Shown here: in pieces, positions 3,770 through 18,408 of the stretch
Position numbering within the stretch: position 1 is the first letter of the stretch
Layout: every line of letters starts with the position of its first letter
Virus record (IMG/VR): IMGVR_UViG_3300029517_000085
DNA length: 22,813 bases
Strand: one strand, 5' to 3'
Source: a virus
Lineage: Duplodnaviria > Heunggongvirae > Uroviricota > Caudoviricetes
Translations under genes and position numbers: made by a program
The notes under the pieces: generated by a model
Told to the model about the DNA's origin: nothing
Databases searched by the model: none
Seen by the model: only the letters and a program-made list of their open reading frames with translations

Positions 3770-3978
<209 letters not shown>

Positions 3979-5310: not shown

Positions 5311-5412
5311 GTTGAAGCCTGCTTTTTTATACTAAGTTGGCATTATAAAAAAGCATTGCTTATCAATTTGTTGCAACGAACAGGTCACTATCAGTCAAAA
5401 TAAAATCATTAT
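5311..5412. other. attL: Prophage attL: bacterial arm + lambda core GCTTTTTTATACTAA (5321-5335) + P' arm with Int arm-type sites
   Basis: Sequence GAAGCCTGCTTTTTTATACTAAGTTGGCATTATAAAAAAGCATTGCTTATCAATTTGTTGCAACGAACAGGTCACTATCAGTCAAAATAAAATCATTATTTG matches the recalled lambda attP P' arm joined to attB. It lies directly next to int. Confidence 0.85.
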
Positions 5413-6479
5413 TTGATTTCAATTTTGTCCCACTCCCTGCCTCTGTCATCACGATACTGTGATGCCATGGTGTCCGACTTATGCCCGAGAAGATGTTGAG
5501 CAAACTTATCGCTTATCTGCTTCTCATAGAGTCTTGCAGACAAACTGCGCAACTCGTGAAAGGTAGGCGGATCCCCTTCGAAGGAAAGACCTGATGCTTT
5601 TCGTGCGCGCATAAAATACCTTGATACTGTGCCGGATGAAAGCGGTTCGCGACGAGTAGATGCAATTATGGTTTCTCCGCCAAGAATCTCTTTGCATTTA
5701 TCAAGTGTTTCCTTCATTGATATTCCGAGAGCATCAACATGCAATACTGTTGGGATGGCAATTTTTACGCCTGTTTTGCTTTGCTCGACATAAAGATATC
5801 CATCTACGATATCAGACCACTTCATTTCGCATAAATCACCAACTCGTTGCCCGGTAACAACAGCCAGTTCCATTGCAAGTCTGAGCCAACATGGTGATGA
5901 TTCTGCTGCTTGATAAATTTTCAGGTATTCGTCAGCCGTAAGTCTTGATCTCCTTACCTCTGATTTTGCTGCGCGAGTGGCAGCGACAGGGTTTGTTGTT
6001 ATATGGCCTTCAGCTATTGCCTCTCGGAATGCATCGCTCAGTGTTGATCTGATTAACTTGGCTGACGCCGCCTTGCCCTCGTCTATGTATCCATTGAGCA
6101 TTGCCGCAATTTCTTTTGTGGTGATGTCTTCAAGTGGAGCATCAGGCAGACCCCTCCTTATTGCTTTAATTTTGCTCATGTAATTTATGAGTGTCTTCTG
6201 CTTGATTCCTCTGCTGGCCAGGATTTTTTCGTAGCGATCAAGCCATGAATGTAACGTAACGGAATTATCACTGTTGATTCTCGCTGTCAGAGGCTTGTGT
6301 TTGTGTCCTGAAAATAACTCAATGTTGGCCTGTATAGCTTCAGTGATTGCGATTCGCCTGTCTCTGCCTAATCCAAACTCTTTACCCGTCCTTGGGTCCC
6401 TGTAGCAGTAATATCCATTGTTTCTTATATAAAGGTTAGGGGGTAAATCCCGGCGCTCATGACTTCGCCTTCTTCCCAT
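5409..6479 (-). CDS. int: Lambda-type tyrosine integrase Int (356 aa)
   Basis: Translation MGRRRSHERRDLPPNLYIRNNGYYCYRDPRTGKEFGLGRD... matches recalled lambda Int over its full length. Adjacent to attL. Confidence 0.95.
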   Translation of the reverse strand: MGRRRSHERRDLPPNLYIRNNGYYCYRDPRTGKEFGLGRDRRIAITEAIQANIELFSGHKHKPLTARINSDNSVTLHSWLDRYEKILASRGIKQKTLINYMSKIKAIRRGLPDAPLEDITTKEIAAMLNGYIDEGKAASAKLIRSTLSDAFREAIAEGHITTNPVAATRAAKSEVRRSRLTADEYLKIYQAAESSPCWLRLAMELAVVTGQRVGDLCEMKWSDIVDGYLYVEQSKTGVKIAIPTVLHVDALGISMKETLDKCKEILGGETIIASTRREPLSSGTVSRYFMRARKASGLSFEGDPPTFHELRSLSARLYEKQISDKFAQHLLGHKSDTMASQYRDDRGREWDKIEIK

Positions 6480-6675
6480 TTCTGATCCTCTTCAAAAGGC
6501 TACCTGTTACTGGTCGATTTAAGTCAACCTTTACCGCTGATTCGTGGAACAGATACTCTCTTCCATCCTTAACCGGAGGAGGGAATATCCTGCACTCGCG
6601 TACCCATCGACGAACTGTTTCAAGGCTTCTTGGGCGTCGCTGGCGTGCGTTCCACTCCTGAAGTGTCAAGTACAT
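6457..6675 (-). CDS. xis: Excisionase Xis (72 aa)
   Basis: Translation MYLTLQEWNARQRRPRSLETVRRWVRECRIFPPPVKDGREYLFHESAVKVDLNRP... matches recalled lambda Xis. Overlaps the int start as in lambda. Confidence 0.93.
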   Translation of the reverse strand: MYLTLQEWNARQRRPRSLETVRRWVRECRIFPPPVKDGREYLFHESAVKVDLNRPVTGSLLKRIRNGKKAKS

Positions 6676-7422: not shown

Positions 7423-7761
7423 TTATATCATTAATTTTGTTTCGTGCCAGCCTTTGGTCACCCAGCATTGTGAGTCACCATTACACGGGCATGAATTAAC
7501 AGGAACTCTCTCGCCGCACTTACCGCACCGTTTTCTGCTGATCGATTTTATACGCCAGCGCACACGTGCATCATCCTGGCGGCTCAGTAACGCGATGTAC
7601 TCACCAAACTCGCAAGGCGCACGCCTGAAGCGACGCGTGGCACAGTTACGCTCCAGCATTTCAATTTCCTGAGCATCAAGTACAAGCTCCAGCTTACGCA
7701 TACCGGATGATGCTTGCTTGGCTCTCTGATCGGCTTTGTGCTCTGTTGCTGATTTAGCCAT
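7423..7761 (-). CDS. Hypothetical Cys-rich protein (112 aa) with putative C-terminal zinc-ribbon
   Basis: ATG at 7761 with an AGGA SD. C-terminal RCGKCGERVPVNSCPCNGDSQCW has C-x2-C...C-x-C spacing. Sits 28 nt upstream of the 142-aa gene on the same strand. Confidence 0.55.
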   Translation of the reverse strand: MAKSATEHKADQRAKQASSGMRKLELVLDAQEIEMLERNCATRRFRRAPCEFGEYIALLSRQDDARVRWRIKSISRKRCGKCGERVPVNSCPCNGDSQCWVTKGWHETKLMI

Positions 7762-7955
7762 TCTGCTTTTCCTGCATCAGGAGAAAGACAATCATGGCGG
7801 CGCGGATACTTCCGGTATCTTTTTACGCGATATTCCCCTTCAATGGCACATACAAGAAGAGAGCCATCAACAGGAGTGATTGAGGAATCGACAACCAGCA
7901 ACGCTTAATTATCTATAGTGTCGTATTTGCTTCATAAAATATGGCGAATAACACA

Positions 7956-7990
7956 AAGCCCGCAGCAGCTCATTGTGCGGGCTTTTCTTA
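7956..7990. terminator. Intrinsic terminator-like hairpin (9-bp perfect stem AAGCCCGCA/TGCGGGCTT, U-tracts on both strands)
   Basis: AAGCCCGCAGCAGCTCATTGTGCGGGCTTTTCTT, directly downstream of the 204-aa minus-strand gene. Confidence 0.6.
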
Positions 7991-8054
7991 TACCTACTTC
8001 CTAGAGATAATTCTATGGAGGCATTAAATCAATACTGTCATTGGTAATATCATA

Positions 8055-8669
8055 TTATCTAAAAGTCTTTCCACTTTTAACATCTAGGTATATTCTGTTC
8101 GACAACGTCATTCCTCCGCAATATGTGAAATAGATGTTTTCACCCTTATTGCTTGATGCCATCCACCCTCCGATTTCCTTAAAATCGCTTTCCGTGCAGA
8201 CCCCTTCATTTATTAACTTCCTAGCTGCCGAAGAAAACTCTTTTTTGTATATACGGTAGTCATCAGATCCTTTGATTAAAGTATCATCTCCGCTCGCATT
8301 TTCAGCAGGATCTGATGGCCTTTCACTGCTAAGATCACTAAGTTTAACCCATTCTGAAAACTTGCCATTAACGATTCCATTTTTTCTTGTGCAGGATTTA
8401 TTACCTTCTTTAATATATTCGCTTTCCCCTCCAACACATGAGGCTGAATATGGCTCAGTTATACGAACCCATTCACCTTTTTTTTCTAGAAAATCTACGC
8501 CTTCCCTGAAAAATAGTTTCCCAGCCACTCCACATTTACTTGAAGGGCAGGTATGTCTTTCCGTTCGATCAACAACAACCCATAGTTTTGATTCATTTTT
8601 TGCCATTGCCGATGGTATTTGAGATGAGACAATTAACGTAAGCCCTAAAATTAGTATTGATTTTTTCAT
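8055..8669 (-). CDS. Secreted/periplasmic Cys-rich hypothetical protein (204 aa) with N-terminal signal peptide; moron-like
   Basis: ATG at 8669 with an AAGGA SD. N-terminus MKKSILILGLTLIVSSQIPSAMA-KNE is a typical Sec signal with an AxA cleavage site. Several Cys in the mature part. AT-rich, with its own downstream terminator. Confidence 0.65.
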   Translation of the reverse strand: MKKSILILGLTLIVSSQIPSAMAKNESKLWVVVDRTERHTCPSSKCGVAGKLFFREGVDFLEKKGEWVRITEPYSASCVGGESEYIKEGNKSCTRKNGIVNGKFSEWVKLSDLSSERPSDPAENASGDDTLIKGSDDYRIYKKEFSSAARKLINEGVCTESDFKEIGGWMASSNKGENIYFTYCGGMTLSNRIYLDVKSGKTFR

Positions 8670-8967
8670 TGTAATTTCCTTTTACTTTTTACAAAGCGTT
8701 TAATCATGGCTGATTATCTCTAAGTGTAGTAACAGCCTTGTGCGAAACATGTTACCAAATCGCCATTTCAGTGTATCCGCAGTTAGGCTGCCACTTCAAG
8801 GATTCCTAATTACATGGTACGTAAGCGTAAAATCCCGTTGGTTGGCGGGTAATAACTCTGATCAAATCTCCCTTGTCTTTTGCTCTTACGTATGCAGCTC
8901 TTGTGTATTCAACCCAGGCCTCCAGTTCAGCAATACGCTTACTTCCATCCGAGATAACACCTTCTAC

Positions 8968-9219
8968 TCACGCTGCTCGTTGAGTTTTGATTTTTGCTGT
9001 CTCCAGCTCAACACGCAGTTTCCCCACCGTTAGCGCAATATCCTCGTTCTCCTGGTCGCGGCGTTTGATGTATTGCTGGTTTCTTTCCCGTTCATCCAGC
9101 AGTGTCAGCACAATCGATGGTGTTACCAGCTCATGGAAAAGGTCCGCGTCAAATCCCCAGTTGTCAGGCATTGCCTGCTCTGCCGCTTCACGCAGTGCCT
9201 GAGAGTGAATTACGCTCAC
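8968..9219 (-). CDS. Hypothetical protein (83 aa), acidic with a coiled-coil-like C-terminus
   Basis: ORF whose start overlaps the stop of the upstream TraR-like gene. No family recognised; possibly a remnant of an Ea22-like gene (speculative). Confidence 0.45.
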   Translation of the reverse strand: MSVIHSQALREAAEQAMPDNWGFDADLFHELVTPSIVLTLLDERERNQQYIKRRDQENEDIALTVGKLRVELETAKIKTQRAA

Positions 9220-9817: not shown

Positions 9818-9996
9818 TCAGTGGTTGTCATACCTGGTCTCTCTCATCTGCTTCTGCTTTCGCCACCATCATTTCCAGCTTTTGTGAAAGGGATGCGGCT
9901 AACGTATGAAATTCTTCGTCTGTTTCTACTGGTATTGGCACAAACCTGACTCCAATTTGAGCGAGGCTATGTGCCATCTCGATACACGTTCNNNNN

Positions 9997-10185
9997 NNNN
10001 NNNNNNNNNNNNNNNNNNNNNNNNNNNNNNNNCCGTTTATTATTTATCTCCTCAGCCAGCCGCTGTGCTTTCAGGGGATTTCTGATAACAGAAAGGCCGG
10101 GAAATACCCAGCCTCGCTTTGTAACGGAGTAGACGAAAGTGATCGCACCTACCCGGATATTATCGTGAGGATGCTTCATCGCCAT
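9997..10185 (-). CDS. Lambda orf60a-like small protein; 3' end falls inside the masked N run (9992-10032)
   Basis: N-terminal 51 aa [51 protein letters not shown] match recalled lambda orf60a. The rest is unreadable because of Ns. The end coordinate is inferred from the lambda length. Confidence 0.5.
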
Positions 10186-10856
10186 TGCTCCCCAAATACA
10201 AAACCAATTTCAGCCAGTGCCTCGTCCATTTTTTCGATGAACTCCGGCACCATCTCGTCAAAACTCGCCATGTACTTTTCATCCCGCTCAACCACGACAT
10301 AATGCAGGCCTTCACGCTTCATACGCGGGTCATAGTTGGCAAAGTACCAGGCATCTTTTCGCGTCACCCACATGCTGTACTGCACCTGGGCCATGTAAGC
10401 CGACTTTATGGCCTCGAAACCACCGAGCCGGAACTTCATGAAATCCCGGGAGGTAAACGGGCATTTCAGCTCAAGGCCATTGCCGTCACTGCATAAACCA
10501 TCGGGAGAGCAGGCGGTACGCATACTTTCGTCGCGATAGATGATCGGGGATTCAGTAACATTCACGCCGGAAGTGAATTCAAACAGAGTTCTGGCGTCGT
10601 TCTCGTACTGTTTTCCCCATGCCAGCGCCTTAGCATTAACTTCCGGAGCCACACCGGTGCAAACCTCAGCCAGCAGGGTGTGGAAGTAGGACATTTTCAT
10701 GTCAGGCCACTTTTTTCCGGAGCGGGGTTTTGCTATCACATTGTGAACTTCTGAAGCGGTGATGACGCCGAGCCGTAATTTGTGCCACGCATCATCCCCC
10801 TGTTCGACAGCTCTCACGTCGATTCCGGTACGCTGCAGGATAATGTCCGGTGTCAT
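10176..10856 (-). CDS. exo: Lambda exonuclease (Red alpha), 226 aa
   Basis: Full-length match to recalled lambda Exo ([62 protein letters not shown]...). Confidence 0.95.
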
Positions 10857-12158: not shown

Positions 12159-12291
12159 TTTTTGGGACTCCTGGCTGATTAAGTATGTCGATAAGGCGTT
12201 TCCATCCGTCACGTAATTTACGGGTGATTCGTTCAAGTAAAGATTCGGAAGGGCAGCCAGCAACAGGCCACCCTGCAATGGCATATTGCAT
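12127..12291 (-). CDS. cIII: CIII (FtsH/HflB inhibitor protecting CII), 54 aa
   Basis: Hand translation from the minus-strand ATG at 12289-12291 gives MQYAIAGW... and ends ...YGYPD with stop at 12127-12129. Below the ORF-track size cut-off. Overlaps kil out of frame. Confidence 0.85.
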   Translation of the reverse strand: MQYAIAGWPVAGCPSESLLERITRKLRDGWKRLIDILNQPGVPKNGSNTYGYPD

Positions 12292-12363
12292 GGTGTGCTC
12301 CTTATTTATACATAACGAAAAACGCCTCGAGTGAAGCGTTATTGGTATGCGGTAACGCCGCGC

Positions 12364-17923: not shown

Positions 17924-18408
17924 AAAACATCGCCGCACAGATGGTTAACTTTGACCGTGAGCAGATGCGTCGGATCGCCAACAACATGCCGGAACAGTAC
18001 GACGAAAAGCCGNNNNNNNNNNTACAGCAGGTAGCGCAGATCATCAACGGTGTGTTCAGCCAGTTACTGGCAACTTTCCCGGCGAGTCTGGCTAACCGTG
18101 ACCAGAACGAACTGAACGAAATCCGCCGCCAGTGGGTTCTGGCTTTCCGGGAAAACGGGATCACCACAATGGAACAGGTTAACGCAGGAATGCGCGTAGC
18201 CCGTCGGCAGAATCGACCATTTCTGCCATCACCCGGGCAGTTTGTTGCATGGTGCCGGGAAGAAGCATCCGTTATCGCCGGACTGCCAAACGTCAGCGAG
18301 CTGGTTGATATGGTTTACGAGTATTGCCGGAAGCGAGGCCTGTATCCGGATGCGGAGTCTTATCCGTGGAAATCAAACGCGCACTACTGGCTGGTTACCA
18401 ACCTGTAA
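17920..18408 (+). CDS. P: Replication protein P, C-terminally truncated (162 aa versus 233 aa recalled for lambda); a 10-nt N run at 18013-18022 masks a few codons
   Basis: MKNIAAQMVNFDREQMRRIANNMPEQYDEKP…SNAHYWLVTNL matches recalled lambda P up to about residue 162, then hits a stop at 18406-18408 where lambda continues (YQNMRANAL…). Confidence 0.8.
   Translation: MKNIAAQMVNFDREQMRRIANNMPEQYDEKPXXXXQQVAQIINGVFSQLLATFPASLANRDQNELNEIRRQWVLAFRENGITTMEQVNAGMRVARRQNRPFLPSPGQFVAWCREEASVIAGLPNVSELVDMVYEYCRKRGLYPDAESYPWKSNAHYWLVTNL

Follow-up and report, generated by a model that had tools for sequence, protein, structure and literature searches.

A moron-like cassette with an apparently RNAI-derived promoter and a predicted exported SH3b-type protein in the xis–exo region of a lambda-like prophage

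Morons, a concept that goes back to Juhala and Hendrix, are one of the main ways in which temperate phages alter their hosts, and most of them are still annotated as "hypothetical". The lambdoid examples, such as bor and lom of lambda and gp15 of HK97, are extra genes that carry a promoter and a terminator of their own, deviate in base composition, occur patchily and give an envelope product. We describe here a cassette for which the same traits are observed or predicted, in a stretch of DNA of 22,813 nucleotides (IMG/VR record IMGVR_UViG_3300029517_000085, Caudoviricetes) that is referred to below as the window. The window holds the host genes ybhI, ybhJ and ybhC and then a lambda-like Escherichia coli prophage, which is integrated at att-lambda and adjoins ybhC. 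The cassette, about 0.9 kb long (~8811 to 7947, minus strand), consists of a predicted promoter, a leader, one gene and a terminator, and is located in the accessory stretch between xis and exo. It differs from the lambdoid morons in that it lies in this early-left region and not in the late or tail region, in that its promoter and leader appear to be of plasmid (RNAI) origin, and in that the same cassette is present in a P1-like phage-plasmid; its product is related neither in sequence nor in fold to Bor, Lom, Cor or gp15.

The protein can be compared to T4 Spackle, Ivy, PliC/MliC and PliG, which are small, exported and often disulfide-stabilised, exist in soluble and lipoprotein versions, and are encoded by stand-alone genes. 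The family of the cassette protein is predicted to share these traits, and Spackle and the inhibitors serve as a working model, by analogy, for its function, although no sequence or structural similarity to Spackle or to the periplasmic lysozyme inhibitors (Ivy, MliC/PliC and PliG) was detected. The closest described relative of the upstream region is the RNAI gene of ColE1/pMB1, whose promoter works as a promoter in E. coli (PMC11514452).

The gene of the cassette (8055–8669, minus strand, ATG start) codes for 204 amino acids. The ratio of nonsynonymous to synonymous substitution rates (dN/dS) is 0.075 when it is compared to the nearest relative, a copy from Escherichia fergusonii, and judging from this value and from the conservation throughout the family, 8055–8669 is a real gene under purifying selection, a pseudogene or non-functional open reading frame (ORF) being ruled out on the same grounds. 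A first-pass annotation of the window, made from the letters alone, had described this gene as AT-rich, preceded by a Shine–Dalgarno site, and coding for a cysteine-rich protein with a Sec signal peptide cleaved after AMA; these features were all confirmed. The G+C content is 0.38 in the coding sequence and 0.383 in 8670–8810, compared to 0.52 in the ORF of the ea22-like pseudogene on one side, 0.50 in the next downstream gene and 0.46 in the whole window. The Shine–Dalgarno sequence, AAGGA, is at 8677–8681, 7 nt 5' of the ATG. The N-terminus, inspected by eye, reads MKK-SILILGLTLIV-SSQIPSAMA, followed after the predicted cut by KNES: it has the tripartite organization of a Sec/signal peptidase I substrate, with a basic n-region, an 11-residue hydrophobic core, a proline at -5, and small residues in the A-x-A motif at -3 and -1. 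This signal peptide (residues 1–23; 8601–8669) precedes a mature part with six cysteines, at positions 41, 46, 78, 93, 158 and 184. The gene is carried by 129 of 5426 complete E. coli genomes and by the isolated phage Chlobot, which is the only one of 50,697 phage records to have it. In the databases the protein is a "hypothetical protein" (WP_000748282; also in Chlobot) of PHROG 8310, "unknown function"; NCBIfam returned nothing for it, and we found no paper on WP_000748282, on phage Chlobot, or on SH3b periplasmic prophage proteins.

The closest relative that is not identical, with 90% amino acid and 84.8% nucleotide identity, is carried by a P1/P7-like phage-plasmid of E. fergusonii (locus L007, H132). 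The nucleotide homology between the two runs from 8811 to 8053 (84.8%) and takes in 142 nt upstream of the ATG. The identity is 83% in these 142 nt, 70% at third codon positions, and about 63% in the 3' untranslated region; the upstream region being more conserved than the third codon positions, and dN/dS being 0.075, we conclude that both the protein and the 5' region are constrained. Downstream of the gene, folding predicts an intrinsic terminator (7947–7985, minus strand): a hairpin with a G+C-rich stem of 10–12 bp, AAAGCCCGCA...TGCGGGCUUU (7955–7985; dG ~ -13.7 kcal/mol), which starts 69 nt 3' of the stop codon and is followed by UUUGUGUUAUU on to 7947. L007 has a related hairpin, AAAAAGCCCGC-ATAATTA-GCGGGATTTTTTT (the 3' arm is also given as GCGGGAUUUUUUU), at the same relative position. 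The consensus scanner missed this minus-strand terminator because its loop is longer than 8 nt. An A-tract upstream of the stem potentially makes the terminator bidirectional.

The unit formed by the predicted promoter, the leader, the gene and the terminator is therefore common to two temperate elements that are otherwise unrelated. By kind the cassette is a classic moron. Of the five features by which a moron is recognised, the fifth being expression from the repressed prophage, four are found in silico: the cassette is present or absent among relatives (of this region, lambda and many relatives have the ea22 flank alone), it has its own predicted promoter and its own factor-independent terminator, and its base composition is deviant, the G+C content being also below that of the flanks at most, not all, of the other loci checked. 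The earlier reading of this region as a self-contained moron with its own hairpin terminator is thus well supported, by the occurrence of the same unit in the P1-like element, by the variety of the slots occupied by the gene in other genomes (see below), by the low G+C content, and by the predicted promoter and terminator.

The predicted sigma-70 promoter (8770–8799, minus strand) has a -35 hexamer TTGAAG (8794–8799), an 18-nt spacer and a -10 hexamer TACACT (8770–8775). It ranks 10th of 226,790 window positions with an approximate position weight matrix. Both hexamers are identical in L007, the spacer of which differs at 5 positions. Another candidate, GATAAT at ~8712, was rejected because it has no usable -35 element. 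TTGAAG and TACACT are also the hexamers of the pMB1/pUC RNAI promoter. When the region was searched against a plasmid collection (blastn), window ~8800–8699 matched about 390 small (2.5–15 kb), mostly mobilizable ColE1-type plasmids of Escherichia, Enterobacter, Klebsiella, Salmonella and Shigella, with 79–84% identity (query positions 12–112, E ~1e-13 to 4e-19; 404 plasmid records match). In one of them, the Klebsiella pneumoniae ColRNAI plasmid NZ_CP023915 (L151), Rfam places RNAI at 1066–1167 (78.6 bits); the hexamers of the window align on TTGAAG and TACACT of the plasmid, in which the -10 element ends 7 nt before the start of RNAI. The span of homology is 8699–8805 (minus strand) of the window against 1028–1167 of L151 and 1953–2056 of L152.

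The predicted start of transcription, ~8762, gives a leader of ~93 nt (8670–8762, minus strand), of which 8699–8762 corresponds to the 5' tail and to stem-loops I and II of RNAI, the remainder being the Shine–Dalgarno region. The homology runs through the 5' tail, stem-loop I and the top of stem-loop II, and stops near 8699; past this point the plasmid continues into stem-loop III and its terminator, whereas the window continues into the Shine–Dalgarno sequence and the ATG. The loops CGCACA and GCCA of the leader are identical to those of plasmid RNAI, and stem II shows a compensatory change from U-G to A-U. The Rfam model of RNAI (RF00106) has no match at E ≤ 1 in window 8500–9000, which indicates that the region is a truncated, RNAI-derived promoter and leader rather than an RNAI gene; no RNA family was found by Rfam in the cassette region. 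The promoter of the cassette thus appears, from this alignment, to descend from the RNAI promoter of ColE1-type plasmids, since the -35 and -10 elements, the 18-nt spacer, the start region and stem-loops I–II all align. Unlike RNAI, the copy in the cassette breaks off after stem-loop II, where it joins a Shine–Dalgarno sequence and an ORF, is antisense to no RNAII here, and would serve as the promoter and leader of an mRNA. A homologue of the gene (66–70% identical) is carried by a 5.3-kb ColRNAI plasmid of Citrobacter braakii, ~350 nt downstream of RNAI and on the same strand, so that the promoter of the cassette could plausibly have come from a ColE1-type plasmid; on this plasmid the homologue itself is preceded by another strong promoter, TTGACA-17-TACTAT.

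The remains of two genes enclose the cassette. On the left is an ea22-like pseudogene (8812–9219, minus strand), delineated by three-frame translation, alignment to lambda ea22 and the RefSeq annotation (PGAP), in which it is an ead/Ea22-like pseudogene, "frameshifted; missing C-terminus". Its 5' part, from 9219 to ~8921, has ~95% nucleotide identity to lambda ea22. The N-terminal ORF of 83 amino acids (8968–9219) ends at an in-frame TGA (8968–8970): compared to lambda, one A is inserted and 4 nt are deleted 32 nt further, and the TGA is met in the shifted frame between these two lesions. At ~8921 the pseudogene leaves its homology to lambda, and the original frame enters a tail that resembles a gene of an E. 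coli phage-plasmid (8848–8916 is the matching piece) and ends at a TAG (8806–8808), its last two codons being inside the cassette. The idea that the cassette replaces the interval in which lambda carries ea22 must therefore be revised: the 5' part of ea22 is still present, and only its 3' third has been replaced, by phage-plasmid-like sequence. Nor are the ~300 nt upstream of the gene all non-coding, as had been proposed: of these 298 nt, 8812–8967 is the tail of the pseudogene, and only ~141 nt upstream of the ATG (8670–8810) travel with the gene.

On the right is an internal fragment of 37 codons of a UmuD/HumD-like S24 peptidase gene (7791–7901, minus strand), detected by tblastn and blastn and present in PGAP as "DNA repair protein, incomplete", a pseudogene that reads into the next gene. 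It is 76% identical over 37 amino acids to the S24 peptidase of L007 (tblastn), and 7801–7904 falls on the S24 gene of another phage-plasmid (L014; blastn). The 105-residue "UmuD-like" ORF of phage Chlobot (7584–7901, minus strand) is a chimera in which the 37 S24 codons run out of frame into the gene at 7423–7761, which belongs to PHROG 536, "transcriptional regulator"; this ORF is probably a pseudogene. A joined-flank query found no E. coli prophage in which the ea22-like pseudogene is fused directly to the S24 fragment: the 104 records that have both flanks all have the cassette too. Since no flank-to-flank junction was found, simple insertion could not be demonstrated; the xis–exo region is a recombination patchwork and not the site of a clean insertion.

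The structure of the protein was modelled with AlphaFold2 from an alignment of 38 sequences (pLDDT 89.7). The model shows two domains separated by a linker: an SH3-like beta-barrel (residues ~27–110; 8340–8591), which can be superposed on solved SH3b domains, and a C-terminal domain with an alpha-alpha-beta-beta-beta topology (residues ~125–204; 8058–8297). The first differs from the SH3b domains (PF08239) of lysostaphin, phage endolysins and NlpC/P60 enzymes in having a 35-residue insert with a probable extra disulfide (C78–C93) and a C41-x4-C46 loop, in scoring below the gathering threshold of the Pfam family, and in being attached to a novel domain of 80 amino acids rather than to a hydrolase domain. 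No match in the PDB was found for the C-terminal domain by sequence, with the single protein or with a profile, and profile matches to designed TIM barrels were discarded as spurious helix matches.

The C-terminal domain, with the signature SDD...C...DF.EMGGW...YFTYCGG...NRIYLD.G and one probable disulfide, is the constant, always-extracytoplasmic module of the proteins that we collected, and according to the profile search it is the core of a large uncharacterised family. Among 1.84 billion representative proteins, this search returned 174 clusters (at 50% identity) at E ≤ 1e-30; the 1565 matches at E ≤ 1e-3 are a count inflated by generic SH3b proteins. The SH3b domain occurs in the family behind a signal peptide, behind a lipobox, after a Zn-ribbon and a transmembrane segment, after ankyrin repeats, or in several copies, and the C-terminal domain is also found alone behind a signal peptide or a lipobox, as a small secreted protein or lipoprotein. 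That the C-terminal domain stands alone or behind differing N-termini suggests that it is the effector part and that the anchors are interchangeable. An export signal is kept across the family, either an A-x-A signal peptide or, in distant members, a lipobox (L-x-x-C); a crude rule finds a lipobox or a hydrophobic stretch at the N-terminus in 112 of 137 full-length members, and the remainder are mostly truncated. Periplasmic export of the product is strongly implied by this conservation. All six cysteines are present in 128 of the 184 members that span the alignment. The first four are lost, and C158 and C184 kept, in 42 members, while 3 lack only C78 and C93 and 1 lacks only C41 and C46. Cysteines that are lost by pairs point to the disulfides 41–46, 78–93 and 158–184, as expected for a periplasmic protein, which suggests that the family protein has three disulfides.

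A structural phage protein was ruled out, because there is no structural PHROG match and because the location of the gene varies between elements. No sequence or fold similarity was found to described defence or exclusion proteins (PADLOC-DB; Cor, Llp, SieA, SieB, Spackle), and from all these comparisons the protein falls outside the families described so far for defence, exclusion, immunity or inhibition. The roles suggested for it in the first-pass annotation, superinfection exclusion or lysogenic conversion, are possible but find no counterpart among these families.

The family is found on at least five kinds of mobile element. In Pseudomonas, the homologue belongs to a small island, in which it comes directly after a tyrosine integrase and is followed by four conserved genes. 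The products of these genes (~236, 105, 130 and 337 amino acids in L003, L004, L008–L011, L019, L021 and L022) have no Pfam or PADLOC match; one of them has a weak match to a PHROG "transcriptional regulator", and the islet of L008 is broken by a group II intron reverse transcriptase and IS66. In an Aeromonas prophage the homologue is located in the late region, between the Q antiterminator and holin genes and next to a restriction–modification system, and in other viral contigs it either separates the head from the tail genes, on the opposite strand, or immediately precedes the terminase, or adjoins tail genes. The neighbours on the C. braakii plasmid and on the Aeromonas and Pseudomonas islands have no informative domains. 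Large plasmids of Citrobacter, Klebsiella and Enterobacter have captured a piece of prophage that contains a copy 100% identical to that of the window; the fragment, from DUF1317 to DUF2513 and including the cassette, is in Citrobacter freundii pA18-1 (NZ_CP022274, L150) and in 15 other large plasmids (some also from E. coli), and in pA18-1, an IncA plasmid, it adjoins IS5, Tn5403 and an ars operon. A lipoprotein version is part of a core chromosome, where it adjoins metW and pheST, and distant copies (~30% identical) occur in conserved chromosomal synteny in Vibrio. The only neighbours that recur across lineages, in 109 loci, are integrases, transposases, a resolvase and umuD- or umuC-like genes, and in most hosts checked the gene has a lower G+C content than its flanks. 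Such varied slots together with a low G+C content are the signature of a single-gene cargo that brings its own benefit.

We propose that the cassette is an autonomous moron that encodes an exported, envelope-protective protein, a reading to which we give somewhat better than an even chance as a whole. Its genetic and topological part is highly probable. Transcription would start from the RNAI-derived sigma-70 promoter, at ~8762, and end at the 7947–7985 hairpin, so that the gene, having its own promoter and terminator, could be expressed in a repressed lysogen; upon induction, additional read-through from pL would be expected. The product would be exported by Sec and cleaved after AMA23, and would most likely form three consecutive disulfides in the periplasm. 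The SH3b domain may then tether the protein to peptidoglycan, while the C-terminal domain may bind and neutralise some agent at work in the periplasm, for instance an enzyme that hydrolyses the cell wall or a different factor aimed at the envelope. Its source could be a phage entering the cell, a bacteriocin, a competitor or the host; lysozyme and the wall enzymes of type VI secretion systems are also candidates. The cassette would thus protect the envelope of whichever cell carries it, which would explain why phages, phage-plasmids, integrase islets and a 5-kb ColE1 plasmid all keep it as independent cargo. The protective-binder function, be it envelope protection or exclusion, is possible, and we put it forward tentatively, with more doubt than conviction.

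Several observations weigh against this proposal. A generic promoter scanner (threshold 9 of 12) does not list TTGAAG-18-TACACT, and the promoter call rests on homology and on the approximate matrix. The match to Pfam SH3_3 (PF08239) reaches 16.2 bits, compared to a gathering threshold of 27, although some homologues carry a precomputed PF08239 match, and SH3b folds can bind ligands other than murein. PADLOC assigns the protein to 0 families. No toxin or hydrolase partner recurs beside the gene in the 109 loci, so that the idea of an inhibitor or immunity protein has no support from the genomic context. Last, IS1 has been inserted twice independently in the cassette, in E. coli PSS-16 (L147), where it splits the coding sequence, and in the widely used E. 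coli strain ATCC 8739 (L148), where it falls in the leader, downstream of the predicted promoter and ahead of the ATG, which shows that the gene is dispensable (in culture).

It may be that the gene matters mainly when the lytic cycle is induced. It would then be expressed by damage-inducible read-through, from pL in the window and from LexA-controlled umuD or humD genes elsewhere, and would have the cell wall as its target; it could adjust murein turnover or the timing of lysis, for example, or exclude other phages from a committed cell. The gene is indeed co-directional with pL, the Aeromonas copy is in a late region, and the family is repeatedly associated with umuDC. In L016 (4019–6411) and L017 (4760–7152), a signal-peptide homologue, 51% identical, is inserted between an S24 peptidase (umuD-like) gene and a Y-family polymerase (umuC-like) gene, with spacers of 44 nt and 9 nt, and the operon starts with a GTTC-N7-GTTC box, the alphaproteobacterial LexA motif. 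In L007 (3640–4846) the cassette follows by 158 nt a humD-like gene that is preceded by a perfect LexA box, TACTGTATATAAACACAGTA; the homologues of L060 and L082 adjoin truncated umuC or umuD genes, umuC being immediately upstream; umuDC is 2.2 kb away from the homologue in L139; and in the window the S24 fragment is just downstream of the cassette. This association may reflect an expression that is coupled to the SOS response, or merely a common hot spot for cargo: operons like umuDC are frequent cargo and insertion hot spots on mobile elements, as exemplified by rumB in the integrative and conjugative elements of the SXT/R391 family. Moreover, there is no LexA box near the gene in the window (7900–8900, up to 1 mismatch), the cassette has its own predicted promoter, of a constitutive type, and terminator, and most loci have no umuDC neighbour, so we consider a role coupled to induction unlikely. 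A CTG-N10-TAG motif of the leader was rejected as a LexA box because it is not conserved in L007.

Another hypothesis, which we find rather improbable, is that the protein is an orphan immunity protein against a toxin that acts in the periplasm (an amidase or muramidase effector of a type VI secretion system, colicin M, or a pesticin-like bacteriocin) and has spread without its toxin. The existence of soluble periplasmic, lipoprotein and membrane-anchored forms in the family fits this hypothesis, such a range being typical of periplasmic immunity proteins and lysozyme inhibitors, as does the presence of the gene as stand-alone cargo on the 5.3-kb ColE1-type plasmid. The island of Pseudomonas monsensis adjoins pyocin S loci, but these are neighbours of the integration site, outside the island, and the other Pseudomonas copies are flanked differently; above all, no cognate toxin gene recurs beside the gene in any lineage. 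The payload could also be the RNA, in which case the leader would act in trans as a mimic of RNAI: by targeting the RNAII of ColE1-type plasmids present in the cell, it would exclude these plasmids or reduce their copy number, the protein being a passenger or a second function. The contacts between the loops of RNAI and RNAII set incompatibility (PMC9458437), the leader keeps the very part of RNAI described above, with both loops intact, and Enterobacterial plasmids similar to it are numerous. On the other hand stem-loop III and the terminator are missing, the RNAI model of Rfam finds nothing, the fold of the leader is no more stable than that of shuffled sequence (z -0.74), and the coding sequence is under strong purifying selection; since the homologues found elsewhere use unrelated promoters, the conserved payload is the protein, and we give this explanation very little credence. 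A broader version of our proposal, in which the C-terminal domain would be the hallmark of a novel class of modules that protect or inhibit in the periplasm and travel as single-gene cargo between phages, phage-plasmids, integrase islets, ColE1 plasmids and SOS (umuDC) operons, the Enterobacterial lineage being wired to a captured RNAI promoter whose leader might also disturb the replication of ColE1-type plasmids (an envelope shield and an anti-plasmid RNA in one), is distinctly speculative and improbable as a whole.

Returning to the exported, envelope-protective moron that we favour, the element is of an ordinary kind, though its promoter has an unusual ancestry and its protein family is uncharacterised. 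What is new here is the dissection of the protein into domains, the breadth and mobility of the family defined by the C-terminal domain, the apparent RNAI origin of the promoter and leader, and the association with SOS/umuDC genes. The cassette offers a clean testable case, with a single small protein that is predicted to be exported and a confident structural model. If it protects the cell wall or blocks infection, a new family would be added to the repertoire of envelope-level defence. The capture of the promoter of a plasmid antisense RNA is a concrete way for a phage cargo gene to gain a constitutive-type promoter, and the RNAI-derived leader raises a testable idea of interference between phages and plasmids.

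The remaining features of the window are as follows. The order of the prophage genes places int at 5409–6479, xis at 6457–6675 and exo at 10176–10856, all on the minus strand, with bet and gam beyond exo and accessory genes between xis and exo. Runs of N are present at 9992–10032 (41 bases), where they break ORFs between a TraR/DksA-like gene and exo, and at 18013–18022 (10 bases). An antisense ORF of 97 amino acids (8740–9033, plus strand), annotated as a hypothetical protein in Chlobot, overlaps the tail of the ea22-like pseudogene and the promoter of the cassette, and is most likely spurious. Last, Rfam detects the lambda cIII thermoregulator element at 12246–12304 (minus strand, 88.5 bits) and a naRNA4/REP-type element at 3852–3922 (plus strand, 60.7 bits), downstream of ybhJ.

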